Source: an uncultured Lentisphaeraceae bacterium
GTDB lineage: Bacteria > Verrucomicrobiota > Kiritimatiellia > RFP12 > DVOR01
Reading direction: 5' to 3'
Assembly: GCA_949288955.1 (NCBI GenBank)
Contig: CASEMS010000002.1
Span: forward strand, 6,490 to 70,489
DNA: 64,000 nucleotides
Shown: positions 6,466 to 60,645 of the stretch, one piece after another
Layout of the letters: each line of letters opens with the position of its first letter
Position numbering within the stretch: the first letter of the stretch is position 1
Position numbers and translations under genes: made by a program
The notes under the pieces: model-generated
Told to the model about the DNA's origin: nothing
The model's database searches: none
The model's input: the letters and a program-made list of their open reading frames with translations, nothing else

Positions 6466-6620
6466 CTCAAATCCGTCCTTCGCTCAGGTTGCGGGCCTCC
6501 GCCCACTTCGCCTAGCATTGTAGCAAACTCCCTCCGCCCGTGCACAAACGCCAGCCCCACTCAATGGCCCCCGGGGAGAAGGAAGACTAAGACGACCGCG
6601 CCCAAGGCGGACGCCCCACC

Positions 6621-6715
6621 CGCCGACGCTCGGTGGATCAGCCGCCGACGCAAGGAGACTTAGCCGCCGACGCTCGGTAGATCAGCCGCTGACGCTCGGT
6701 GGATCGGCGGCTGAT
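6621..6715. repeat. 22-bp minisatellite family (GGATCRGCSGCTGAYSCGAGGW-like), ~4 units
   Basis: tandem units cggtggatcagccgccgacg / gtagatcagccgctgacgctcg / gtggatcggcggctgatgg; same family at 16153, 33363, 39326, 49242, 59222. Confidence 0.7.
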
Positions 6716-6731
6716 GGTTGGGGCGTGCGCG

Positions 6732-6766
6732 ACCAAGCCTCCAAGCCTCCAACCTTCCAAACTTCC
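6732..6766. repeat. (CCAAGCCTC/CCAAACTTC)n 9-mer microsatellite
   Basis: ccaagcctccaagcctccaaccttccaaacttcc; same motif at 15981-16056 and 29225-29290. Confidence 0.7.
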
Positions 6767-6771
6767 GTTTG

Positions 6772-6850
6772 CGCGGGAGGCGAGGGCGGTAGGGAGCGGT
6801 CAGCGGGCGTCAGCCCGCAGAGCGACCGGCGGAGCCCGCAAGCCCTCCCG
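6772..6850. repeat. 77-nt palindromic module C (copy 1), 9-bp terminal inverted repeats GCGGGAGGC...GCC(C)TCCCG
   Basis: near-identical copies at 15897-15973 and 33257-33333; internal hairpin GCGGGC-loop-GCCCGC. Confidence 0.7.
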
Positions 6851-6872
6851 TTGCGTCTTCGCGGTCAAAACC

Positions 6873-9611
6873 TCAGACGCCGAGGGCGGCGTGGAGGGCG
6901 AGGGCGTTGGGGGCCATCACGCGGGCGGCGCGCCAGGGGCCGAAGTCGTGGAGTTTGGTGACGGCGGCGCACCAACGTTTCAGGGCGAAGTGTTTGTCCC
7001 GGGCGGAGGGGTCGTCCTGTCCCTTCACCTCCAGCACGACGGTCTCGCCCGAGGCGAGGCGCACGATGAAGTCGGGGATGTAGGTGTGGGCGAGGCCTTG
7101 GGAGACGTAGCGGATGCGCAGGCCGACGTGACGGTCGTTGCGGACGTAGGCCGACACCGCGTCCGCCTCCGCGAGCCAGGCGGCGACGGAGCGTTCCCAC
7201 GCGCTGTCGTAGACGGCGGCGGCGATCTGGCTTTTGGGGCCGGTGGGGGTGGGTTCCTTGGTGGTGTGCCAGGTGCGCATCCGGGCGGTGGAGAGGGTGG
7301 GCTGGCGGCTGTCGCGCACGATGGCGAGGTCTTGGCGTTCCTTGGGGGTCAGGTGGTCGAGCAGATGGCGGACGACCTGGCCCATCTGATAGGCGTAGGC
7401 CAGGCGGGCCTCGGGGGAGCCGAGGGCGGCCGTCTGCCAGAAGAGGTTCTCCTGCCAGTGGCATTTGCCGGAATCGATGAAGTCGGCGGCCAGGCGCACG
7501 AGTGCGGCGAAGAGGCGGGGCACGGCCATCTCGCGCCGTTTCCGGGCGAAGGCCGCGCTCTCCAGGAGGGCTTTGGCCATGGTGAAGAGGAGGGTCTGCC
7601 GGCGCGGCGCGGCCTGGGCGATGTCAAGGGTGTAGAGGTCGGCGCGCTCCACCTTCATCCACTCGCCGAGGGTCTGGGCCATCTGGGCGGAGACGGTGAG
7701 GGTCGGCTCCAGAATCAGCTCCGGGACGTCCTTGAGGGAGAGTTCCGGCGCGGCGACGTCGTCGATGCGGAGGATGTTGGGCCAGGCGATCTCGGCGGTC
7801 TCGCGGCCCGGCGCCACGGCGATGGGATAAGTCGGGGCGGGGGGCTCGCCGCCGCCGGCCCCTTCCGTGGGGAGGAAGCGGAAGGGAACGCCAAAGACCT
7901 GCACGTATTCCGGGCGGAGGAGGCCCGTCTCGGGGTCGACGTCGTAACTCACGCGGCGGAGGCCTCGGCCGATGACCTGCTCGCAGAGGAGCTGGCTGGT
8001 GAAGGCGCGCAGGCCGAGGATGTGGGTGACGGTGCGGGCGTCCCACCCCTCCGAGAGCATGGCCACGGAGATGAGGTTGGCGACCGCCGCGCCCGGCTGG
8101 CCTTCCTTGCCCACGGTGGCGACGCGCCTGCGGAGGGCCTCCCCCGCCGCGCCGCTCTTCTCAAGCACTTTGGAATCGATGCGCAGGACGCGCTCGGGCT
8201 CGCACAACGTCTCCGCGCCGCCCAGGGTGGCCCCGCCGCCGGAGAGGAAGTGGCGTTCGACGCGCGCGGCGGTGGTGGTGTTGTTCACCACGCTGATGAG
8301 CACGGGCGGGACGGGGACGCGGCACGCCCGCCAGAGGTCGGCGGTCTTGCGCCAGTCGGCGGCGAGGAGGGAGTAGGCGTTGGCCAGCGCGGGGGGCAGG
8401 GGGGCGGCGGGGTCGGCCGCCTCGTCGATGGCCTCCTTGATGCCCGGCGCCTCGTAGAGGTCGTAGAGGTCGGGGAGGTTCGTCTCGGGGTTGATGGGGC
8501 CGGCGGCGTCGCAGGGCATACGGGGGGTCTTGACCAGTCCGGCCTCGATGCCGTCGTTCAGGCCGAAGTCGCTGACCACCCAGCCGAAGAGGAAGTCCTC
8601 CTTGCTCATCTTGCCCGAGGGGATGAAGGGGGTGGCGGAGAAGTCGTGGCAGCGCAGGATGGGGGCCACGCGGTGGATACGGTCGAGGCCGCCCACCCAG
8701 ACGGTGTGCTCGTCCTTCTCCTCGCCCACGCCGCGGTAGTCGCCGGCCTTGGCCTTGGGCGGGAGGCGCCAGGCGTGGTGGGCCTCGTCGTTGAGGACGA
8801 GGATGCGAGGGGCCTTGGCCAGCTCCGTCCCCAGCACGGCACGGGCGTAGGCGCGGTCGCCCAACGGCCCGCGCTTGTCCACGCCCCGCCGTTTGCGCAC
8901 CTTCTCGGCGTCCTCCCACTGCATGGCCTGCCAATTGAGGATGCGCACGCGCGCCTGCGCCAGGCCCAACTGGAGCGACTCCGGCACCAGGCCGCCGCCA
9001 TACTCCGCGCCGCCCGCGGCGGGATCCAGCCCCGACAGGCGGTCGCGCACCGTGAGGTTGGGCGCCACGACGAGGACATCGCGGCAGAAGCGTTTGTCCT
9101 GGGGGTGGGCGACTTTGTTGCAGGCGTGCCAAGCGATGAGCATGGCCATCACCTTCGTCTTGCCGCCGCCCGTGCAGAGTTTGGTGCAGACGCGCTCGAA
9201 GGGGCCGCCGTCGCCGCGCAGACGCCCCTCGCCCTCGCCCCACAGCCCCTGACGCTCCGCCTCCGGCCCCTCCGTCAGCCAGATGAGCGTCTCGATGGCC
9301 TCCAACTGGCAGAAAAAGGGGCGCGGCTCCATCAACCCCTCCTCCTCCCCCACCCCATGCCACCGCCCCAGCAACTGGCGTGTGACAGGCGTGACGCCCG
9401 GCCAGCCGGCCTCGCGCCAGGCCCGCACCCGCCCGCGGATGACCTCCACCGCGCCGAGGGGCACGAACTCGCCGTCGCCCCGGCTCTTGGTGTTGAACTT
9501 GGTGTAGCCCGGCGCCCGGCGGCCCTCCGTCCTCGTCAGCGAGAGCGTCCCCGGGCGATGCTCCCAGTGCCAGGCCGGCTCGGCGTAGGGACTGTTCAGG
9601 ATCAGGCTCAT
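6873..9611 (-). CDS. res: Type III restriction enzyme Res subunit (SF2 helicase + PD-(D/E)xK endonuclease)
   Basis: 912 aa from MSLILNSPYAEP (GGGAGG SD 8 nt upstream; the ORF track extends further upstream in-frame); Walker A LCTGGGKT, DEAH box LNDEAHH, helicase motif VI, C-terminal PD...EVK nuclease motif (YIPDF...LEVKG); ATGA overlap with mod stop. Confidence 0.9.
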   Translation of the reverse strand: MSLILNSPYAEPAWHWEHRPGTLSLTRTEGRRAPGYTKFNTKSRGDGEFVPLGAVEVIRGRVRAWREAGWPGVTPVTRQLLGRWHGVGEEEGLMEPRPFFCQLEAIETLIWLTEGPEAERQGLWGEGEGRLRGDGGPFERVCTKLCTGGGKTKVMAMLIAWHACNKVAHPQDKRFCRDVLVVAPNLTVRDRLSGLDPAAGGAEYGGGLVPESLQLGLAQARVRILNWQAMQWEDAEKVRKRRGVDKRGPLGDRAYARAVLGTELAKAPRILVLNDEAHHAWRLPPKAKAGDYRGVGEEKDEHTVWVGGLDRIHRVAPILRCHDFSATPFIPSGKMSKEDFLFGWVVSDFGLNDGIEAGLVKTPRMPCDAAGPINPETNLPDLYDLYEAPGIKEAIDEAADPAAPLPPALANAYSLLAADWRKTADLWRACRVPVPPVLISVVNNTTTAARVERHFLSGGGATLGGAETLCEPERVLRIDSKVLEKSGAAGEALRRRVATVGKEGQPGAAVANLISVAMLSEGWDARTVTHILGLRAFTSQLLCEQVIGRGLRRVSYDVDPETGLLRPEYVQVFGVPFRFLPTEGAGGGEPPAPTYPIAVAPGRETAEIAWPNILRIDDVAAPELSLKDVPELILEPTLTVSAQMAQTLGEWMKVERADLYTLDIAQAAPRRQTLLFTMAKALLESAAFARKRREMAVPRLFAALVRLAADFIDSGKCHWQENLFWQTAALGSPEARLAYAYQMGQVVRHLLDHLTPKERQDLAIVRDSRQPTLSTARMRTWHTTKEPTPTGPKSQIAAAVYDSAWERSVAAWLAEADAVSAYVRNDRHVGLRIRYVSQGLAHTYIPDFIVRLASGETVVLEVKGQDDPSARDKHFALKRWCAAVTKLHDFGPWRAARVMAPNALALHAALGV

Positions 9612-12148
9612 CGCGCGGCCTCCCGGGGCGCCCCGTCCTCCGTCAGCGCGAAGACGCGGAGGCTCTCGAAGCCCTTGTCGTCGATGATCTTCACCGCCAC
9701 CTTCCGGTTCTCCCCCGGCCTGAAGGGCAGGCTCTTCGTCCCCTGATAGGCCCGCAGACGCTCCGGCGCGATCGTCCCCCGCAGGGTCGCCTCCAGCCGC
9801 CGCCAGACATCCGCGCCGGGGAAGAGGCACTGCTCCGGGTTCACGCACCGCCCATCGTAGTTGCCATCGACCATCCACATGGCGATGTTCGCCGCGCCGC
9901 GCGAGGTCATCGTCTGCCGCACCGGGTCGTAATAGTCGAAGCCCAGCACCTCCGCCGTCAGCATCCCCTCCGCGTCACGCACCAAGGCCACGTCCGGCTG
10001 CCCCACCAACGTGAAGCTTTGGTTGCGGAACTGCCGCTTCAGCAGGTCGGTCATCTGCAGATCCGTGTTCATCTGCACGGTCAGGACGCGTGCGTAGCCC
10101 ACCTTGCTGCGTGCGAGCGCCTCCGAGGCCTCGGCCGTGAACTGGAAGGCCGCGAAGACGAGCAGGGCCGGGCGGGGGCGCACGTCGTCCGCCTCGTCCA
10201 GCGCGTTGTGCACCACCGCCAGGCTCATCGGCGCCGACGCGCTCCCCAGGCAGACCAACGCCTCCTGCCCCTCCTCCGTCACCCCCCGCGCATGGAACCA
10301 CGTGTGCGCCCCCGAGACCTCCAGCGACCGGAAGCGCAGCCGCTCCTCCCCCGACCCCGTCCGGATCCCCGAGGCCCGCAGCTCCGCCACCCACTCCTCC
10401 AGATTCCGCCCCGCCGCCATCCCCTCCTCCGGCCGCGCCTCCAGCAACGGCTCGATCACCGGCTCCGGCAGCGCCTCCACCGTGAAGGGGCCCGTAACAC
10501 GCACCCGACCCTTCTCGACGATCGGCCGGTCCCACAGCGTCTCCTCCCGCGACGGCACGCCATTGGCGATGTCGCCCAACATCACGTGCGGCACCGTCTT
10601 GTAGACCAGCCCGCCGTCCACACCCCGCCCCTCGTCCGCCAGCTTGTACCAATCGTAAGCCTGCGTAATCAGCCGCCGCTTCGCCAACGCCAAGGCCACC
10701 CGACTCGTGTCGATCGTGATCCAACGCCGCCCCCACTCCTCCGCCACCACCGCCGTCGTCCCACTCCCGCACGTCGGGTCCAACACCAAGTCCCCCGGAT
10801 CCGTCGTCATCAGGATGCAACGTTGGATGACCTCACGCGATGTCTGGACAACATAGACTTTGGAGTCCGCCCGACTCTGTATGCCGCCGACATCATCCCA
10901 GAGGTTCGAGATACTCATCCAGTTGAAATCGTCCAAGTAACGGACATAGTTTAATGTGTTCGCACTGGCTTCCAAACGATTGGCTGCGGCCAACCGTTGC
11001 AATCCTTCCAATGTCGTCTTAAAGGTGCCATTGCCAGGCGAATATTTCCGCCCCCCAAACTCAAACTCGCGCACATCTCCGTTCCCCGCAGAACGGCGAG
11101 ACGTCAAATTGTCTAACCGATACACTCGGCTTCCCGTTGGCCTATCTTCATAAACGAACTTACTCCCTGTTCGTCTCTCCCACTCACTGATTGGCATACG
11201 CTCCCCAGACTCTAATTCTATGTTACGGTACTTACTCGCCCCCTCTCCCCCGAAAGTCTTCTCCTTGAAGAGCTCGTGATACTTTACCTTTTCCCGGTCC
11301 TTCGCATACCAAAGGAGATAGTCTCCTGCACGATCAAGCGTACCAGACTCGTTTCCACTCGTCGTGGTATAGGAAATCATGGAGACGCAATTGTCGGGGC
11401 CGAAGACCTCATCGAGGAGGCAACGGACGCGGTGGACGTTCTCCATCGAGATTTGGACGAAGATGGAGCCGGTGGGGGCGAGGAGGTCGCGCATGAGGAT
11501 GAGGCGGTCGCGGAGGTAGGAAAGGTAACTGTGGACACCCCATTTCCAGGTATCGCGGAAGGCCGTGACCATCTCCGGCTCGGCGGTGAGGTCCTCGTCC
11601 TTGCCGTCCTTCACGTCGCGCTTGTGGATGGAGGGCATGAAGTTGGAGCCGAACTTGATGCCGTAGGGCGGGTCCATGTAGATGCACTGCACCTGGCCCG
11701 CCAGGCGCTCATGGCGGAGCAGGGCGTTCATCACCAGCAGGGAATCGCCCGCGATCAGGCGGTTGGTCCACTGCATGGTGTGGTTGTAGGCATAGATCTC
11801 CTCCGTGCGCAGACGGCGGCGGTCGGCCTCCGGCAGGCCGAAGAGGTCCAGCTGCACCGGGTCCCGGTCTTGGTCGGCGAAGGTGGCTTTGAGGATGCGC
11901 AGGGGATTGACGGCCTCGTGCTGGTGGATGGTGAAGGTCGGCACCTCCACCGCGTCCTCGCCCTTCTGGAACCACACCAGGCGCGGGATGTCGTGCGCGT
12001 CGATTTCATAGACCTCCGGGGACCCCGTCTCACGGACGCCGCCTGTCTCGTTCGCCGCCGGGAGCACGGCGCGTTTGTGCTCCGGGTGCAGATACGTATC
12101 CGCCGCGTCGCCCTGCGGTTCATCGACACCGTGTCTCTTGCCAGCCAT
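9608..12148 (-). CDS. mod: Type III restriction-modification Mod subunit, beta-class N6-adenine DNA methyltransferase with extended C-terminal domain
   Basis: 846 aa from MAGKRHG (GGAGGG SD upstream; ORF track start at 12241 is an upstream in-frame extension); motif IV DPPYG precedes motif I TCGSGTT (beta order); ~280 aa beyond the typical Mod C-terminus. Confidence 0.9.
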   Translation of the reverse strand: MAGKRHGVDEPQGDAADTYLHPEHKRAVLPAANETGGVRETGSPEVYEIDAHDIPRLVWFQKGEDAVEVPTFTIHQHEAVNPLRILKATFADQDRDPVQLDLFGLPEADRRRLRTEEIYAYNHTMQWTNRLIAGDSLLVMNALLRHERLAGQVQCIYMDPPYGIKFGSNFMPSIHKRDVKDGKDEDLTAEPEMVTAFRDTWKWGVHSYLSYLRDRLILMRDLLAPTGSIFVQISMENVHRVRCLLDEVFGPDNCVSMISYTTTSGNESGTLDRAGDYLLWYAKDREKVKYHELFKEKTFGGEGASKYRNIELESGERMPISEWERRTGSKFVYEDRPTGSRVYRLDNLTSRRSAGNGDVREFEFGGRKYSPGNGTFKTTLEGLQRLAAANRLEASANTLNYVRYLDDFNWMSISNLWDDVGGIQSRADSKVYVVQTSREVIQRCILMTTDPGDLVLDPTCGSGTTAVVAEEWGRRWITIDTSRVALALAKRRLITQAYDWYKLADEGRGVDGGLVYKTVPHVMLGDIANGVPSREETLWDRPIVEKGRVRVTGPFTVEALPEPVIEPLLEARPEEGMAAGRNLEEWVAELRASGIRTGSGEERLRFRSLEVSGAHTWFHARGVTEEGQEALVCLGSASAPMSLAVVHNALDEADDVRPRPALLVFAAFQFTAEASEALARSKVGYARVLTVQMNTDLQMTDLLKRQFRNQSFTLVGQPDVALVRDAEGMLTAEVLGFDYYDPVRQTMTSRGAANIAMWMVDGNYDGRCVNPEQCLFPGADVWRRLEATLRGTIAPERLRAYQGTKSLPFRPGENRKVAVKIIDDKGFESLRVFALTEDGAPREAAR

Positions 12149-12347
12149 AAAGGCGCCCTCCACGTCTGTTCCGGATCGGGCGTCCGCTAAGAGCCGTGAG
12201 AGAAACAGACGGGAGGGCATACGCACCACGGCGCATGCCACACCCGAACGTTTGCTCTCTCAATGTTTAGCGGACTTTGATCCGAGCAAATCATTCGTGC
12301 GTGCTGCACGTTGACCCCTGCGGCTACTCCCGCAGGCGATGTATTGT

Positions 12348-12376
12348 AGTGTACCTTCCCCGACTCTCGCCGTCAA
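12348..12376 (-). promoter_or_regulatory. sigma70-like promoter for mod-res (TTGACG-17-TACACT)
   Basis: read on minus strand: TTGACGgcgagagtcggggaaggTACACT ~195 nt upstream of mod ATG; a GC hairpin sits in the leader. Confidence 0.5.
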
Positions 12377-12500
12377 GCCTCCCCTTTTCTTCCCCTCCCT
12401 TGCTGCACCTTGCATAATGTTATGGGTTGCGCAAAAAGAGCCGGGGATGCGCGGCGAGCCGCCATCCCCGGATGGATGTTGGGCGATTGGCGCCCCGACC

Positions 12501-14966
12501 CTAGCGTGTCGCGCGCGGGGTGACGGTGAGGATGCCGGCCGAACGGTTCCCGCCGTCGCCCTCGCCCTCCACGCGCAGCGTGTACGAGGAGAGGTCCGTC
12601 CGGAAATCCGGCAGGCGCAGCGTGTACACATTATCCTTGCGGCGGATCCCCGCATAGCCGGGATGGACGTCCTCCGCGACAAGGCGGTCGCCCTCGTAGA
12701 GGGCCACGCGGGCGATGCGCAAGGCATTGGGGCCGCTCGTCCAGCGGAACTCGACGTCATAGACGCCCGCCCGGTCGATTTGGTCGGAGACGTCCACGGC
12801 CATCACCCCCGCGGCAAGATCCCACGCGATGCCGCGTGAATAGGCGAAGGCCTCGGGCCAACGGGCATGGCAGGCACGCGCGAAGGTCAGCGCGGCGGCG
12901 ACGTCCTCCACCAACGTCCCTTTGGGCGCGGCGATGGCGGCGCCCTCCGCCTCGAAGGCACGGTCAATCTCGGCAAGCGCGGGGCCGAGGGCCTTTGGGT
13001 CGGGGTTGGCGAAGAAGGCCTCCCAACGCTTCCGGTAATAGCCGCCCATAAGGCCCGCGAGCTGACGATGGGCGTAATCGTTGAGCGAGCCGCGGGGGCG
13101 ACCCGTCCACGTGGAGACCATGCGCCGCCACGCGCGCACCCCCGCCTCGCCGCCACCGCGTCGGGCCCGGGCCTCATACCAATCCAACCGCCAACGCGGC
13201 TCATGGGCAAGGACGGTCTCCGTGCGGGCGATGGCCTCCAAGAAGGCCGTGCGCGCGTCGGCGTCCTCCTTCGCGCGGGAAAGCAGGGGCCGCCCCAAAT
13301 CGGCAAGCGCCTGCCGGGTCACGTCGGCGAGGTCGTAGCGGAAGGTGGCCTCCCCGAGCAACGCCGGCGTCTCGCGGGCCGCCCGCAGCAGCGCCTCGGC
13401 GGCGCGAAGCGTGGCGATGGGCGCATAGTAAGGCTCGCCACTCGTCCAAGACGAGACCTTCCGGGCCGTCCACGAAGGCCGGGCGCAGAGGATATTCTCG
13501 AAGGAGCCATCCTGCTCGCGGTTGAAGGTATGGGCGGAGTCGAGCAACGCGGCCAGCCCCTGAAGGACGGCCGGGGTGCAGAGCCCGTAGCGGCGGGTGG
13601 CGTAACGCGCCAGCCAATCGCCCAAGTCCGCGCGGTCCATCACCTTGTCCGCCGGCATGAAGAAGCGCTCGGCGAAGAGCTCATAGGCCATCGGGCTGGT
13701 CTCCAGCCCCTCGGAGAGAAAACCGAAGCCCGCCAACGTCTTGGCCCCGGGCGTCCGCGTCAGGCGCCCCAGGCGGCCCAACATCGGCAAGCCCCCGTTG
13801 AAGCCGTTGCGCCCGCCGAAGTTGAAGAGCTCGCACCACAGCCACGGGATCTCCCCGAAGGTGCGCGCGTAGTCGCAGCCCCCCGACTGATCGCGCACAA
13901 GCGCCTCGATAAGCGTGTGCCGGGGGTCGACGCCCCGCAGCAGCTCCGGCCGCGGGTTCGCCTGCCACGCCTGGATCACCCACTTCGCGCCCGGGCACGC
14001 CGCCTGTTGGGCGGCCTGCACCGCCCGCGCGCACGCCGTCACATCCAAGCCGCCCGTGCGCCCACCCTCATGGAAGAGATCGCCCGCGAACGCCTCCGCC
14101 CGCTCGATCCCATAGACCGCCAGCAGATTGCGGTACCACACCGCCGCCACGTCGCGGAACGCCCGCGTGGTCGGATCCAGCACGATGGGCCGCACAAAGC
14201 CGTCGCACCACGTCCCCTGCGGCACGAAGCGCGCATCCGGGAAGCGCCCCTTGTCAAGCCATTCCGGCGCGTCGTGCGGCATCAACCCCACGAAGCCATG
14301 CAGGATCGGCTCCATCCCCAACGCCCGCGCCTCCCGCACGATGAAGCGCCCCACCTCCGCGTTACGGTCAATCGCCTCCTGCGGCAAAGGCCCCCCCAGC
14401 CCCTCCAGGTTCCCCATGTTCCACCACGCCGCGGCCGCCTCATCCGGCAGGAACGCCGCGATGCTCGCCTCCGGGCAGCCCAGCTCGCGCAGCGTCAGCT
14501 GCCACACCTTCTGCAACCCCGCCTGCACCAACAGCCGCCGCACCCCGAAAAGCGCCAGCCGGTCCAGCTCCTCCCGCCACGCCCCCTCATCCCAGAACGC
14601 CATCGTGTACGACAGCGTGCAGTAATTGTACGCCACCGAGTCCGGATACGCCGGCTTGAACGAGAGCGTCCGATCCGGCGCCGGCCACGGCCCCTCCAGA
14701 CGCTCCCCGCACCACGACCAATGCGCGTCCGCCACCTCCCGCAGATAAAGGCCCAGCCCAGCCGCCGCCAACCGCGTCTCCGGCGCCGCGATCGCGATCC
14801 CCTCCTCCCCCACCCGCGCGATGCGGATCTCCCCCATCCCCGGATCCACCCGGAACGCCACCCGCCCCGCCAGCGCGAGATCCACCCGCCCCGCCAAATC
14901 CTCCAACGGCCCCGCCGAACCCACCGCCGCCGCAAACCCGGCCACCGCCATCAGCAATCCACGCAT
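12501..14966 (-). CDS. alpha-N-acetylglucosaminidase (GH89, NAGLU family)
   Basis: 821 aa from MRGLLMAVAGFAAAVGSA (signal peptide); NAGLU N-terminal, TIM-barrel and C-terminal domains recognisable (WWNMGN..., ELFNFGG...). Confidence 0.85.
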   Translation of the reverse strand: MRGLLMAVAGFAAAVGSAGPLEDLAGRVDLALAGRVAFRVDPGMGEIRIARVGEEGIAIAAPETRLAAAGLGLYLREVADAHWSWCGERLEGPWPAPDRTLSFKPAYPDSVAYNYCTLSYTMAFWDEGAWREELDRLALFGVRRLLVQAGLQKVWQLTLRELGCPEASIAAFLPDEAAAAWWNMGNLEGLGGPLPQEAIDRNAEVGRFIVREARALGMEPILHGFVGLMPHDAPEWLDKGRFPDARFVPQGTWCDGFVRPIVLDPTTRAFRDVAAVWYRNLLAVYGIERAEAFAGDLFHEGGRTGGLDVTACARAVQAAQQAACPGAKWVIQAWQANPRPELLRGVDPRHTLIEALVRDQSGGCDYARTFGEIPWLWCELFNFGGRNGFNGGLPMLGRLGRLTRTPGAKTLAGFGFLSEGLETSPMAYELFAERFFMPADKVMDRADLGDWLARYATRRYGLCTPAVLQGLAALLDSAHTFNREQDGSFENILCARPSWTARKVSSWTSGEPYYAPIATLRAAEALLRAARETPALLGEATFRYDLADVTRQALADLGRPLLSRAKEDADARTAFLEAIARTETVLAHEPRWRLDWYEARARRGGGEAGVRAWRRMVSTWTGRPRGSLNDYAHRQLAGLMGGYYRKRWEAFFANPDPKALGPALAEIDRAFEAEGAAIAAPKGTLVEDVAAALTFARACHARWPEAFAYSRGIAWDLAAGVMAVDVSDQIDRAGVYDVEFRWTSGPNALRIARVALYEGDRLVAEDVHPGYAGIRRKDNVYTLRLPDFRTDLSSYTLRVEGEGDGGNRSAGILTVTPRATR

Positions 14967-15228: not shown

Positions 15229-15304
15229 TGGTAGCGGGTGAGGGGATCGAACCCCCGACACGCGGATTATGATTCCGCTGCTCTACCGACTGAGCTAACC
15301 CGCC
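15229..15304 (-). tRNA. tRNA-Met (anticodon CAT; elongator Met or lysidine-modified Ile2 cannot be distinguished here)
   Basis: 76 nt; acceptor GGCGGGT/ACCCGCT (G1-U72), anticodon loop ATCATAA, T-loop GGTTCGATCC, encoded CCA. Confidence 0.85.
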
Positions 15305-15404
15305 ATGTCGGGAAAACGCCGCATAGAATAGCACATGCCGTCCCCCTCTGCAAGCACTTTTTTTCGTTTTGTGAGAGACCCGAAGCACGACGGGGGGGGG
15401 GAAA

Positions 15405-15850
15405 AACCGCAGATTGCGCGGATTGAGGCGGATTTGGGGGTCGGCTACCGCCGACAGGACTGCCAGGGGGGAGACCACCAAGGACACGAAGGGGTGCACA
15501 GAGGAACACGAAGCACGACGGGGGACACAATCACAAAGGACACAACGGACACAAAGGGGAGCGCGGGCATGGCCCGCGCAGGACGGCCAGGAGGGAACCG
15601 CAGATTGCGCGGATTGAGGCGGATTTTGGGGTCGGCTACCGCCGACAGGACTGCCAGGGGGGAAAGACCACCAAGGGCACGAAGGAGGGCACAGAGGGAC
15701 ACGAAGCACGACGGGGGGACACAATCACAAAGAACACAACGGACACAAAGGGGAGCGCGGGCATGGCCCGCGCAGGACGGCGAGGGAGGAACCGCAGATT
15801 GCGCGGATTGAAGCGGATTTGGGGTCGGCTACCGCCGACAGGACTGCCAG
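15405..15850. repeat. composite tandem repeat, ~191-194 bp unit x2.3 (module A + module B)
   Basis: unit starts at 15405, 15596, 15790 (aaccgcagattgcgcggattgaRgcggattt...); module A has hairpin GTCGGC-TACC-GCCGAC and GCGGATT direct repeats; module B is T-free, purine/C-rich (cacgaag, cacaa motifs), ends in palindrome GCGCGGGC-ATG-GCCCGCGC. Confidence 0.85.
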
Positions 15851-15896
15851 AATGCCTGACAAGTACAGCACGGCGAGAGGGACTCACTTGGGCAGC

Positions 15897-15973
15897 GCGG
15901 GAGGCGAGGGCGGTAGGGAGCGGTCAGCGGGCGAAGCCCGCAGAGCGACCGGCGGAGCCCGCAAGCCTCCCGC
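15897..15973. repeat. 77-nt palindromic module C (copy 2)
   Basis: GCGGGAGGC...GCCTCCCGC terminal inverted repeats; internal GCGGGC-GAA-GCCCGC hairpin. Confidence 0.8.
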
Positions 15974-15980
15974 GCAACGG

Positions 15981-16056
15981 TCAAATCCCCCCAAGCCTCC
16001 AAACCTCCAAACCTCCAAACCTCCAAACTTCCAAACTTCCAAACTTCCAAACTTCC
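15981..16056. repeat. (CCAAACCTC/CCAAACTTC)n 9-mer microsatellite, ~8.5 units
   Basis: ccaagcctcc aaacctcc(aaacctcc)x2 (aaacttcc)x4. Confidence 0.85.
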
Positions 16057-16152
16057 AAACTTCCCGCGCCCCCTTGCGTCTTTGCGGTTCCTTCTAGGAT
16101 AGCACGAACGAGAGACGGGGCACGGCGTTTTTCCTCTGGGGGCTGGCCCTCG

Positions 16153-16220
16153 GAGGATCGGCGGCTGATCCACCCCGGGGCGGCGGCTGATCCACCTTGG
16201 ATTGGCCGCCGATCCAAAGT
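16153..16220. repeat. 22-bp minisatellite family, ~3 units
   Basis: ggaggatcggcggctgatccacccc ggggcggcggctgatccacctt ggattggccgccgatccaaag. Confidence 0.7.
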
Positions 16221-16365
16221 TATCAACAACCCCACCCTCCCGGCGGCCCCCGCGGAAAGCGTTTCGACAAGCGCGCGAGGCGCACATCGGGGGCCTTCGC
16301 GCGCTCCCCTCGCCGGCTGGGCGCGCAGGAGGTTTTCCCCGAAGAGGCCCGGCACGTTCGAGATT

Positions 16366-29170: not shown

Positions 29171-29290
29171 TGGAGACTTGGATGCTTGGCCTGCGCTCCG
29201 CGCCCCCCGGCGTCCCGCAGGAGTTCCAAACAGCCAAGCCTCCAAACCTCCAAGCCTCCAAACTTCCAATCAGCCAAGCCCCCAAACTTC
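29160..29290. repeat. 9-mer (CCAAGCCTC/CCAAACTTC) repeat block with one inverted copy followed by direct copies
   Basis: ggaagtttggagacttggatgcttggc (inverted) ... ccaaacagccaagcctccaaacctccaagcctccaaacttccaatcagccaagcccccaaacttcc (direct). Confidence 0.7.
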
Positions 29291-29293
29291 CCC

Positions 29294-32829: not shown

Positions 32830-32974
32830 TGTCACTCCTTGGCTGTTGCGCTGGAAGACGCCATGTCCGCCCTTACGCACACCATGAATGCTAGCAAAGC
32901 CCGCCCCTCAAAGCAAGCCCTTTTTCCCGATTGTGGCCGGGGGAATAAAGAAAACGGGAAACACCAAGCACGCT

Positions 32975-33256
32975 TGGAACGGCGAGGGAGAGATCACAAA
33001 GGGCACGAAGGGGGACACGGAGGAGCACGAAGCACGACGGGGACACAATCACAACGGGCACAAAGAACACAAAGGGGGCGCGGGCGTGGCCCGCGCGGGA
33101 CGGGATGGACGGTGAGAGGAAACCGCGGATTGCGCGGATTGAAGCGGATTGGGGGTCGGCTACCGCCGACAGGACTGCCAGAGGAAAAGACCACAGAGGG
33201 CACGAAGGGGGACACGGAGGAGCACGAAGTATGGAGGGGGACTCACAACGGGCAGC
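32975..33256. repeat. module B + module A + partial B of the composite repeat (single copy)
   Basis: same modules as 15405-15850: cacgaag/cacaa-rich T-free block ending GCGCGGGCGTGGCCCGCGC, then aaccgcggattgcgcggattgaagcggatt...gtcggctaccgccgac. Confidence 0.8.
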
Positions 33257-33333
33257 GCGGGAGGCGAGGGCGGTAGGGAGCGATCAGCGGGCGAAGCCCG
33301 CAGAGCGACCGGCGGAGCCCGCAAGCCTCCCGC
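33257..33333. repeat. 77-nt palindromic module C (copy 3)
   Basis: differs from copy 2 by a single G>A. Confidence 0.8.
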
Positions 33334-33362
33334 GCAACCTTGCGTCTTTGCGGTTCCCCCAA

Positions 33363-33408
33363 GGAGGATCGGCCGCCGAGCCGAGGAGAATCGGCCGCCG
33401 AGCCGAGA
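33363..33408. repeat. 22-bp minisatellite family, 2 units
   Basis: ggaggatcggccgccgagccga ggagaatcggccgccgagccgag. Confidence 0.65.
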
Positions 33409-33504
33409 TTGCGTCGGCGGCGCCGATGGCGGCGGCGTGGGACTTGGCCTCCCGCTCATGGGCGGCGAGCCGCTCCCGAAGCGACTCCTGCGCCGCGCCA
33501 CCAC

Positions 33505-33819
33505 CGTCGCGTTCAGTTGGGCCAGCAGCTCCTTCGGCGCGGCAAGCAGGGCGGCGGAGTCATGGTTGCCCGCGATGAGGATCAGCCGGCCACACGCGCC
33601 GTCGTTCCGAAGGTCGGCGATGAATTGGTAGTAGCGGCGCTGCGCTGCGGGGGTCGGCTGGCGCACGTCGAAGACATCCCCCGCCACCACCAGCGCGTCC
33701 GGACGCTCCGCGCGGACGAGTCCGCGCAGGAAAGCGAGGAAGGCGTCGTGCTCCTCGCCGCGGTCTTGGTCATGGAGCCGTGCGCCAAGGTGCCAATCGG
33801 AGGTGTGGATGAGCTTCAT
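33505..33819 (-). pseudogene. sbcD: sbcD (Mre11-like nuclease) 5' remnant, ~105 codons, truncated at junction with repeat elements
   Basis: MKLIHTSDWHLG...DALVVAGDVFDV...LILIAGNHDS...LNATVVA matches SbcD phosphoesterase motifs I-III; the reading frame then runs into minisatellite/module C sequence; no sbcC nearby. Confidence 0.65.
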
Positions 33820-39325: not shown

Positions 39326-39440
39326 CGGCGGCTCACCCAAGGAGGATCAGCCGCTGAGCCGAGGTGGATCAGCCGCTGAGTCAAAGTGGATCGGCCGCCG
39401 AGCCGAGGTGGATCAGCCGCTGAATCAAAGTGGATCGGCC
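39326..39440. repeat. 22-bp minisatellite family, ~5 units
   Basis: ggaggatcagccgctgagccgag gtggatcagccgctgagtcaaa gtggatcggccgccgagccgag gtggatcagccgctgaatcaaa gtggatcggcccc. Confidence 0.8.
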
Positions 39441-39527
39441 CCCGGCCGTCCGGGAGGGCGCGGGGCCTGCGGGTCCGGCCGGTTCCGACCGGGGTGCGCC
39501 GCCCATCTTCCGGCGCGCGAAAAAACG

Positions 39528-49241: not shown

Positions 49242-49305
49242 CGGATCGGCGGCTAACCCGAGGTGGATCAGCCGCTGACCCGAGGTGGATTGGCCGCCGA
49301 GCCGT
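49242..49305. repeat. 22-bp minisatellite family, 3 units
   Basis: ggcggatcggcggctaacccga ggtggatcagccgctgacccga ggtggattggccgccgagccg. Confidence 0.75.
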
Positions 49306-59196: not shown

Positions 59197-59221
59197 TGCC
59201 CAAGCGCGGCCACCCCGAAAA

Positions 59222-59345
59222 GGATCGGCGGCCGAGACAAAGTGGATCAGCGGCTGACCCGAGGAGGATCGGCGGCCACCCCGAGGTGGATCGGCGGCTG
59301 ACCCGAGGAGGATCGGCGGCTGAGGCAAGGTGGATCAGGGGCCGA
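59222..59345. repeat. 22-bp minisatellite family, ~6 units
   Basis: ggatcggcggccgagacaaagt ggatcagcggctgacccgagga ggatcggcggccaccccgaggt ggatcggcggctgacccgagga ggatcggcggctgaggcaaggt ggatcaggggccgaccggg; the array extends into the 3' end of deoA. Confidence 0.85.
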
Positions 59346-60645
59346 CCGGGAAGGCGTCGGGGAGGGTCGCGGCCACCAACGTGCGGCGAGGGGGCGGGGC
59401 GTCCGCCAAGCGGAAGGCCTTGGCGGCCTCTTCCGCCAAAGCCGAGGCGCGGGCCTCGCCGTCGGCGCAGAGCACGCAGAGCGGCGCCCCCGCCTCGACG
59501 CGCTCGCCCTGCTGGAGGAGGCCATCCACGCCCGCGGCGGGGTCGGGGGTCTCGTCCACGGCCTGGCGGCCCGCGCCCAACGCCAACGCCACGCGGCCGA
59601 TGGCCTTGGCATCCACGTGCGCCACCCAGCCCGCGCACGGCGCGCGCACCGCCACCCGGGCGCGCGCCTCCGGCAGCGGCGCATCCGGGTCGCCCCCCTG
59701 CGCCAGCGTCATCCGGCGGAAGATCGCCGCGGCCTCGCCCGAATCCAAGGCGCGCGCGGCGGCTTGGCGGGCGGCGCCCAGATCCGAAAAGCGGCCCGCC
59801 GCGTGCGCCAGGTGGGCGGCCTCCTCGATGGTCAGCGCGCGGACGTCCCACGGGCCGGCGCCCGCGAGGGTCTCCCGCGCCTCGCGCACCTCCAGCGCGT
59901 TGCCGACGGCGCGCCCGAGGGGCTGATCCATGTCGGTGAGCAAGGCGCGGCAGGTCCTCCCCAAGCGGCGCCCGGTGGCGATCAGCGCCTCGGCGAGGCG
60001 TTTGGCCTGGGGGAGGGTGCCCATGAAGGCGCCGGAGCCGAACTTGACGTCGAAGAGCAGGGTGGAGGCTCCCTCCGCGAGTTTCTTGCTCATGATGGAG
60101 GCGACGATCAGCGGCACGCTCGGCACCGTCGCCGTCACGTCGCGCAAGGCGTAAAGGCGGCGGTCGGCGGGCGCCAGGTCGTCCGTCTGGCCGATCAGGC
60201 AGCAGCCCACCTCGGCCACGATCCGGCGGAAGTCCCCCACCCCCAGGCGCACGTTGAAGCCCGGGATGCTCTCCAGCTTGTCCAGCGTCCCACCCGTCAG
60301 GCCGAGGCCCCGGCCCGAGATCATCGGCACCGCGAGGCCCAACGCCGCGCAGACCGGCGCCAACGGCAGCGAGATCTTGTCCCCCACCCCGCCCGTCGAG
60401 TGCTTGTCGGCCGTCGGCCGGCCGATCCCGTCCCACGCGAGGCAGCGCCCCGAGCGCATCATCGCGTCCGTCAGCGTCGCCGTCTCCCGCGCCGTCATCC
60501 CATTCAGGTAGACGGCCATCAGCCAGGCCGCGATCTGATAATCCGGCAGCGTCCCCTCCGTCACCCCGCGCACCCAGGCGCGCAGGGCCTCGTCGGCGTG
60601 CTCCCGGCCGTCGCGCTTCTCCTCGATAAACCACTGTGGAACCAT
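59335..60645 (-). CDS. deoA: thymidine/pyrimidine-nucleoside phosphorylase
   Basis: 436 aa from MVPQWFIEEKRDG; motifs DKHSTGGVGDK, phosphate-binding and alpha/beta domain. Confidence 0.85.
   Translation of the reverse strand: MVPQWFIEEKRDGREHADEALRAWVRGVTEGTLPDYQIAAWLMAVYLNGMTARETATLTDAMMRSGRCLAWDGIGRPTADKHSTGGVGDKISLPLAPVCAALGLAVPMISGRGLGLTGGTLDKLESIPGFNVRLGVGDFRRIVAEVGCCLIGQTDDLAPADRRLYALRDVTATVPSVPLIVASIMSKKLAEGASTLLFDVKFGSGAFMGTLPQAKRLAEALIATGRRLGRTCRALLTDMDQPLGRAVGNALEVREARETLAGAGPWDVRALTIEEAAHLAHAAGRFSDLGAARQAAARALDSGEAAAIFRRMTLAQGGDPDAPLPEARARVAVRAPCAGWVAHVDAKAIGRVALALGAGRQAVDETPDPAAGVDGLLQQGERVEAGAPLCVLCADGEARASALAEEAAKAFRLADAPPPRRTLVAATLPDAFPVGP

Follow-up and report, generated by a model that had tools for sequence, protein, structure and literature searches.

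A family of structured hairpin repeats in intergenic regions of Kiritimatiellae

REP, BIME and REPIN elements are mobilised by RAYT (TnpA-REP), an HUH Y1 enzyme; REPs and REPINs reach copy numbers of tens to thousands per genome, and HUH/Y1 enzymes read REPs and the ends of IS200/IS605 as folded single strands. The ITRs of parvoviruses are also read by an HUH protein, Rep. Some E. coli REPs have been shown to terminate transcription or to protect the upstream mRNA. The canonical REP is a stem-loop of 20-40 bp, with a stem of 5-13 bp and a loop of 2-20 nt (PMC3733652). REPs form inverted dimers and mosaic clusters, abut stop codons and are known from many phyla, including Opitutus terrae, a member of the PVC group (PMC3733652). 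How they are disseminated is still poorly understood (PMC8266576). A literature search on repeats in Kiritimatiellota returned nothing relevant.

The stretch of DNA analysed here (64 kb, G+C content 69%), referred to as the window, carries three copies of a hairpin that is a real feature, has relatives beyond these copies and defines a new structured repeat family in Kiritimatiellae. Its units share with REPs and BIMEs an extragenic location, the formation of inverted dimers and an occurrence in mosaic clusters with other motifs (8-nt, 22-nt and 194-nt repeats). The favoured reading, which has a somewhat better than even chance of being right, is that of a lineage-restricted, interspersed, non-coding hairpin repeat family that is non-autonomous and resembles REP, BIME and REPIN elements. 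The comparison set for the window consisted of seven further strains about 97% identical to it.

The three copies in the window and their surroundings

The hairpin lies on the + strand at 6773-6851 (copy 1, 79 nt), 15897-15973 (copy 2, 77 nt) and 33257-33333 (copy 3, 77 nt), so that the three near-identical copies described in the earlier note were confirmed, with the span of the first now set at 6773-6851. When the two halves of the element (31-32 nt) were matched with at most one mismatch, each was found at exactly three places in the window, namely copies 1-3, and at none in 100 dinucleotide-preserving shuffles; no copy is expected by chance. A covariance-model search with filters off detected no further copy in the window. 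The terminal inverted repeat GCGGGAGGC/GCCTCCCGC and the inner stem GCGGGC/GCCCGC had been described correctly, as had the loop of copy 1 (GTCA versus GAA), the additional C in its 3' arm and the single G>A that distinguishes copy 3 from copy 2. The latter change is located at 33283 and is specific to the window, and the last base of copy 1 differs too. All three copies are of type A, copy 1 being a variant with the apical loop GTCA and the extra C (51.1 and 78.1 bits against covariance models R1 and R2, respectively). The apical GCGAAGC, as in copy 2, is taken here, as a lead only, to be the well-known very stable DNA mini-hairpin.

The predicted fold of the unit is one long hairpin, which by computation forms on both strands. 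Relative to shuffled sequences the RNA fold has z scores of -4.6 (copy 2), -5.1 (copy 3) and -2.1 (copy 1), and the single-strand DNA fold -4.4 (copy 2) and -2.8 (copy 1). The argument that conserved stems with variable loops reveal selection on structure fails on these copies, since they differ at only about four positions and cannot demonstrate it.

The element extends beyond the hairpin. Each copy is followed 3', on the + strand, by a conserved tail, TTGCGTCTTYGCGG, which is otherwise absent from the window and is part of the unit. At copy 1 it reads TTGCGTCTTCGCGGTCA (6851-6867, + strand) and stops 6 nt short of the res-like gene's stop codon; here the 8-nt linker CGCAACCT, found just 3' of the hairpin in sister strains, has been lost. 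At copy 3 it reads TTGCGTCTTTGCGGTTC (33340-33356, + strand). Copy 2 has the same TTGCGTCTTTGCGGTTC as a distal tail motif (16074-16090, + strand), separated from the hairpin by 8.4 units of the 8-nt tandem repeat TCCAAACT (15998-16064), an array that is one unit shorter in sister strain L066; a proximal tail, present directly after the hairpin in L066, is deleted in the window. Upstream of copy 2, on the - strand, lies a partner module (15786-15850) consisting of an inverted tail-like end GGAACCGCAGATTGCGCGG and a small hairpin GTCGGCTACCGCCGAC, and the same kind of module recurs upstream of copy 3 (33118-33181, - strand). As read from the sequence, the first letters of this module, GGAACCGCA, are the tail end TGCGGTTCC in exact reverse complement.

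All three copies are embedded in intergenic mosaics of 22-nt, 8-nt and ~194-nt tandem repeats. The mosaic beside copy 1 (6620-6760) comprises 22-nt repeats (6620-6705) and 8-nt CCAAGCCT repeats (6733-6760), the 8-nt block being missing in sister strains L066, L081 and L085, and another 22-nt repeat (33362-33407) directly follows the tail of copy 3. The 22-nt tandem repeats occupy at least six intergenic sites in the window (6620-6705, 16138-16230, 33362-33407, 39337-39448, 49243-49297 and 59206-59347); their unit has the palindromic core GGATCRGCSGCYGA, while the analogue in the related BRZ MAGs introduced below is also 22 nt long and has a different palindrome, GACCCCTATAGGGTC. The 8-nt repeat, of the type CCAAACYT with a C-rich and G-poor + strand, occurs at 6733-6760, 15998-16064 and 29225-29291, varies in unit number across sister strains and has counterparts of the same kind in the BRZ MAGs (CCAATCAG/CCAAACTT). 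It could be a microsatellite or, if transcribed, a tract resembling a Rho-utilisation site. The 194-nt tandem repeat (15405-15850, 2.3 copies), whose final unit is the partner module of copy 2, includes among its sub-modules runs of short repeats similar to CACGAAG/CACAAAG, and a single stretch related to it is located upstream of copy 3 (32985-33250).

Copy 1 is intergenic, with psd on one side and a type III restriction-modification pair on the other. This pair, encoded on the - strand and kept in all sister strains, consists of an N6_N4 methylase (9608-12259) and a protein of about 1000 aa (6873-9878) with a weak ResIII match. The copy had been placed directly 3' of the res stop codon; that codon (6873-6875, - strand) is in fact 22 nt past the hairpin, and the gap is the element's own tail (6851-6867). 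Copy 2 is situated between tRNA-Met and folP, and copy 3 between a prepilin-like gene and a remnant of sbcD. Copy 3 had likewise been assigned to the truncation point of sbcD; it does belong to the adjacent repeat cluster but is about 165 nt from the end of homology (~33499), not at the break itself. The remnant (33499-33819, - strand) retains residues 1-107 of about 375, and the truncation is common to all three strains compared. Another gene may have left its remnant in the 93 nt that separate the break from the repeats. SbcCD is a nuclease that cuts DNA hairpins, and the loss of sbcD from a palindrome-rich genome is a curious coincidence.

The genes scanned with Pfam around the units are housekeeping, restriction-modification and uncharacterised genes, the scan of the window having covered those before the later ones at ~39.5-64 kb. 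No transposase, RAYT or Y1 gene was detected by Pfam in the ORFs near the window copies and in the BRZ loci, and the gene tables of the related loci examined contain no RAYT, Y1 or other transposase. No small ORF or type I toxin near the units is conserved between copies. An extended -10-like motif, TGCTAnnnT, was seen by eye to recur on the - strand (~15325-15333, 6517-6525, 32888-32896 and 16096-16104), upstream of tRNA-Met, of psd and of the prepilin-like gene (possibly leaderless), with one instance pointing into the tail of copy 2. In the BRZ MAGs TGCTATACT was noticed upstream of genes, also by eye.

Relatives, unit architecture and covariation

A pattern scan covering one genome per species returned 52 stretches, five of which contained true relatives. 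These belong to MAGs titled Kiritimatiellaeota, BRZ_EK bin27 and BRZ_KQ bin80; the remaining stretches were rejected as chance matches in G+C-rich taxa. Two scans of metagenome contigs with core patterns yielded 0 hits and 13 chance hits, and viral contigs and plasmids were unmatched. The covariance models R1 and R2, built from the window copies together with the relatives' copies and searched against about 290 kb, gave 40 hits (30 distinct), which come from the window's species, the BRZ MAGs and a third lineage, ERZ16268180 scaffold_232. Four further members were found in a later search of L096, a BRZ_KQ-like contig from a relative of the BRZ MAGs. At least three lineages other than the window's species and its strains carry the family.

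All units are intergenic. Three were seen in the 64-kb window and up to five in a single 8-kb BRZ locus, the relatives' stretches being no longer than ~21 kb. Between lineages whose FolP proteins are at most 73% identical, the unit core is 92-94% identical. Some Kiritimatiellae relatives, with an S7 96% identical to that of BRZ_EK, have compact intergenic regions and yielded no member in about 70 kb; the family is therefore patchy in its distribution. Another palindromic element, GCGTGGAAA...TTTCCACGC (~62 nt), occurs in L032 (7784-7933), L074 (20500-20652) and L044 (~1180-1260). It has an A'-like interior followed by a CGTCTTYGCGG tail and was missed by the covariance model; the 30 sequences counted are therefore not the whole family.

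The units fall into subtypes A, A', B, C and X, range from 54 to 88 nt and have a common layout of fixed polarity. In all subtypes an outer stem, P1, of 9-10 bp is followed by a second stem, P2, of 4-7 bp and a conserved asymmetric internal loop (5' CGGKAGGGMG, 3' GYGKNAG), capped by an apical hairpin that varies in length and sequence. The conserved 3' tail, YYGCGTCTTYGCGG, begins mostly 6-8 nt downstream of the hairpin and is composed of a short direct repeat, TTGCG-TCT-TTGCGG. It was found in 28 of the 30 distinct 3' flanks, at 1-11 nt from the hairpin, both exceptions being deletion derivatives, and the columns of the internal loop are identical in 26-30 of the 30 sequences. The most conserved parts of the unit are thus the unpaired internal loop and the tail.

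P1 and P2 differ in sequence between subtypes while retaining complementarity, with changes on both sides in 15 of 16 outer pairs. The proportion of paired cells is 91.2%, a value somewhat inflated by an alignment that was fitted to the structure, compared with 76.2% after shuffling (none of 500 shuffles reached it) and 31-41% with a slid partner. Compensation is also evident inside type C (ACGCGAGGG/CCCTCGCGT versus ACGCAAGGG/CCCTTGCGT). Random stem substitutions, named in the earlier note as counter-evidence, do exist as uncompensated changes and truncations in individual copies, but between subfamilies the changes are compensated. Across the wider family selection acts on pairing and not on stem sequence. 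The inner helix CGGTC/GACCG was left unproven because it shows no covariation and its pairing is frequently broken by A.C. A pseudoknot between tail and internal loop was discarded, as complementarity is absent by eye.

Inverted pairs of units, about 28 nt apart with their tails outward, are frequent and occur in the BRZ loci, L083/L084 and L096. In L083 (196-428) such a pair, X on the - strand and B on the + strand, folds as a T/Y shape (DNA z -7.0), in which the two outward tails form a perfect 15-bp stem closing both hairpins; the geometry recalls that of parvoviral ITRs.

Turnover between genomes and the nature of the element

Comparison of the strains revealed rapid change around the units, although these are short-read metagenome assemblies in which repeats can misassemble, so that some of the junction variants may be artefacts. 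At the site of copy 1, five strains have a type A unit with an identical core and a 5' junction that is different in each, the arm being shortened by 0-6 nt and one strain carrying a 34-nt internal duplication. Two strains have instead two tandem composites, each composed of an inverted tail, X on the - strand, a spacer, B on the + strand and a tail. Copy 2 is present in all strains covering its site (seven sampled), five of them with two uncompensated C>T changes and different flanks. At the site of copy 3, L079 is without part of the 5' arm, and L080 without the 3' arm, the tail and the 22-nt repeats. L079 also contains, about 2 kb from the copy 3 cluster, a strain-specific island of ~3.2 kb (11367-14605) with HTH_3/Peptidase_M78, DUF4417 and four small ORFs, which is absent from L080.

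Similar changes were observed between the BRZ MAGs. BRZ_EK and BRZ_KQ are 96% identical in the rplU-obg-rpsG region, and a 133-nt unit (hairpin and tail) downstream of rpsG has opposite orientations in the two, with different modules around it; the BRZ_KQ arrangement was also found in a third contig. The family spreads, is lost, replaced and inverted at the DNA level, and its individual copies are dispensable. Larger blocks are shared as well: a 779-nt composite is duplicated at 98% identity inside one MAG (L044 1174-1952 versus L011 2125-1348), and two lineages of different G+C content share a 217-nt composite at 91% identity (L032 7784-7996 versus L074 20652-20436). Such duplication of whole composites points to transfer or to strong constraint acting on blocks that exceed a single unit. 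Neither a clean-edged empty site nor a target-site duplication was found at the junctions inspected, and for this reason transposition itself is presumed; recombination, gene conversion and slippage alone could yield the polymorphisms.

The earlier note had offered a small RNA or a recognition hairpin as alternatives. A recognition hairpin within a mobile repeat fits the data better, even though no enzyme was found, and an RNA gene is unsupported. Variable stems beside a conserved loop and tail argue that a folded single strand is recognised and not duplex termini, and the lack of target duplications favours this as well. An enzyme encoded in trans, most likely an HUH/Y1 nuclease of the RAYT type, would then probably recognise the units as folded single-stranded DNA; it would read the conserved loop and tail and require of the stems only that they pair. 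Since no RAYT, Y1 or transposase gene was found among the flanking genes examined, this mobilising enzyme is purely postulated. Nested insertion, together with recombination or slippage between repeats, may account for the mosaic reshuffling, and any effects on neighbouring genes, for example through a stable hairpin in the res-like gene's 3' UTR, would be secondary.

Loop and tail are highly conserved across genera, which would also be compatible with a role of advantage to the host, either as RNA or in protein binding. In a more novel interpretation, to which only a small probability is given, the unit is the recognition module of an undescribed mobilisation or processing system of Kiritimatiellae, based on a new HUH/RAYT-like clade or on another protein, or else belongs to a new class of protein-binding structured RNA. 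Such a system might act on folded single strands that include T/Y doublets, in which paired tails close two hairpins.

A conventional MITE, that is, a deletion derivative of an IS or a solo IS end moved by a DDE transposase, with P1 or the paired inverted tails as its terminal inverted repeats, is similarly unlikely. P1 is indeed a terminal inverted repeat of 9-10 bp, a perfect 15-bp inverted repeat (TTCCGCGAAGACGCG/CGCGTCTTCGCGGAA) delimits the pairs, the size range is appropriate, and presence, replacement and orientation are polymorphic. However, it is P1 that varies by subtype and the internal loop that is conserved, whereas terminal binding sites should give the opposite pattern, and single units have one tail only. 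Inspection by eye of the junctions in the window, L032/L037, L044 and L083 found no target-site duplication, and the DDE-type MITE is disfavoured because the termini vary and such duplications are absent. In about 0.7 Mb of related sequence there is no full-length IS with these ends, nor do plasmids and viral contigs match; the suggestion that the copies might be fragments of a longer known IS terminus found no support either, no such IS having been detected.

It is still less probable that the family consists of cis-acting transcript elements, each a stable hairpin after a gene that serves as a bidirectional terminator or as a shield against 3' exonucleases. The position of copy 1, which together with its tail starts 6 nt after the stop codon of the res-like gene, agrees with such a role, as does a hand tally of the type A copies, about six of nine of which follow a co-directional gene when the unit is read on its reverse strand. 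The hairpin is present on both strands, and REPs have been reported near the 3' ends of ORFs (PMC3733652). The stem, however, is not followed immediately by a U tract: the U-rich tail begins 6-9 nt after it, and a consensus scan with a U tract required within 0-2 nt flags no copy on either strand as an intrinsic terminator. The same scan flags the canonical terminator after tRNA-Asn, and canonical terminators exist nearby, for instance at 15129-15099, and in L044, where one separates the end of the gene from the repeat composite. Moreover, copy 2 and the units L032a and L011b are upstream of genes, not after them, and the conserved loop, the tail, the subtypes and the inverted pairs are left unexplained. 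Some copies, such as copy 1 after the res-like gene, may nevertheless act as terminators or stabilisers.

Equally improbable are multi-copy small structured RNA genes, each a hairpin with tail of ~80-100 nt, transcribed alone and acting in trans, the conserved internal loop serving for instance to bind a protein, or the GGAGG/CCUCC-like loop to pair with mRNAs. Covarying stems with a conserved loop and tail are the classic pattern of a functional structured RNA, the RNA folds better than shuffles, the core is far better conserved between lineages than FolP, and the instance of the extended -10-like motif at 16096-16104 (- strand), TGCTATCCT, points, by eye, into the tail and copy 2. On the other hand, promoters and terminators are not consistent at unit ends; the tail was considered as a sigma-54, ECF or sigma-70 promoter, but the spacings are unfit and a scan finds none. 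Mismatches in the outer helix (13 G.T versus 8 A.C) reveal no strand preference, an early hint of a functional - strand (G27A giving A.C on the + strand) being cancelled by opposite cases. Orientation flips at one locus between genomes 96% identical, and within a species copies lose an arm or are swapped for other subtypes under no visible constraint. DNA repeats, moreover, are typically paired in inverted fashion and embedded in mosaics of repeats. No Rfam family matches the units, either in the whole window at the gathering threshold or in 15300-16200 at E<=10, and in three BRZ loci carrying 12 units no match at E<=1 overlaps any of them. The element is probably not a new RNA gene. The hint of tRNA length was misleading, as ARAGORN and Rfam RF00005 find only the five genuine tRNAs of the window, and neither a tRNA nor a tmRNA is called at the copies.

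A false lead is thereby removed: the units are neither tRNA-like genes nor a riboswitch, and annotation pipelines should therefore mask them as repeats. A structured repeat family with its own covariance model is now documented in a poorly studied phylum, where intergenic regions can reach 1-2 kb and are built from interchangeable modules. Stems that vary, next to a loop and a tail that are conserved, make for an unusually explicit layout and provide a concrete handle for finding the enzyme that spreads REP-like elements. The fast turnover of modules among strains about 97% identical makes them useful strain markers and a likely source of misassembly in metagenomes.

Comparison with known systems

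Among integrons, the attC sites (57-141 nt) are of similar size and are likewise single-strand hairpins with conserved structure, variable stem sequence, conserved unpaired features and a variable terminal structure. The family differs from them in that the R'/R'' core sites (GTTRRRY/RYYYAAC) are absent from the ends, the units occur in inverted pairs, and there is no integrase and no cassette array among the ordinary chromosomal neighbours examined, the window copies being separated by 9-17 kb and surrounded by housekeeping genes. The GCGCAAC/TCAAA flanks were rejected as attC, dif/Xer or IHF sites, since they do not fit the consensus.

The mosaics of Neisseria (dRS3/CGTC-1 with Correia/NEMIS), ERIC, BOX and RUP resemble the present arrangement in forming large intergenic regions of interleaved short repeat families. 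In the Neisseria mosaics and other MITE-like repeats, as here, module content varies by strain and hairpin units measure ~60-150 nt. Sequence similarity to Neisseria mosaics, ERIC, BOX and RUP is, however, absent, and while Correia elements have conserved 26-bp terminal inverted repeats and TA duplications, the termini of the family vary and no duplication was seen.

The ends of IS200/IS605 and PATEs combine a subterminal hairpin with a short conserved motif a few nucleotides away, which is how an HUH TnpA reads ends, and the unit is built in a similar manner. Comparable too is that IS200/IS605 elements do not require terminal inverted repeats and make no target duplication. Their left and right end hairpins have the same orientation and flank tnpA/tnpB, whereas the units are solitary or in inverted pairs with no ORF, and no Rfam RNA motif of the IS605 type matches them.

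The closest likeness is to REP, BIME and REPIN elements, with which the family shares multiple extragenic copies, imperfect palindromes whose polarity comes from unpaired motifs, several subfamilies per genome, mosaic clusters and the abutting of stop codons. Inverted dimers are frequent in both (spacers of 20-100 bp in REP/BIME/REPIN, ~28 nt here), and in both the elements are near-identical within a genome, different between genomes and patchily spread in phylogeny. Several features set the family apart. Its units of 54-88 nt, with two stacked stems (P1 and P2), a large internal loop and a nested apical hairpin, exceed the simple stem-loop of 20-40 bp, and no unpaired GTAG/CGTC tag stands directly at the foot of the stem. 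Instead, CAA(G) or CAGC precedes the foot of P1, the internal loop contains GTAG (in the window and in type C) or GGAG (in BRZ), and CGTC is found further 3', in the tail that lies 6-8 nt from the stem. REPs have nothing corresponding to the conserved direct-repeat tail of 14 nt, and a cognate RAYT (Y1_Tnp) gene, which REP/REPIN repeats typically flank, was not seen among the flanking genes examined. Because canonical size and terminal tag differ in this way, the family is REP/BIME-like and not a member of the REPs.
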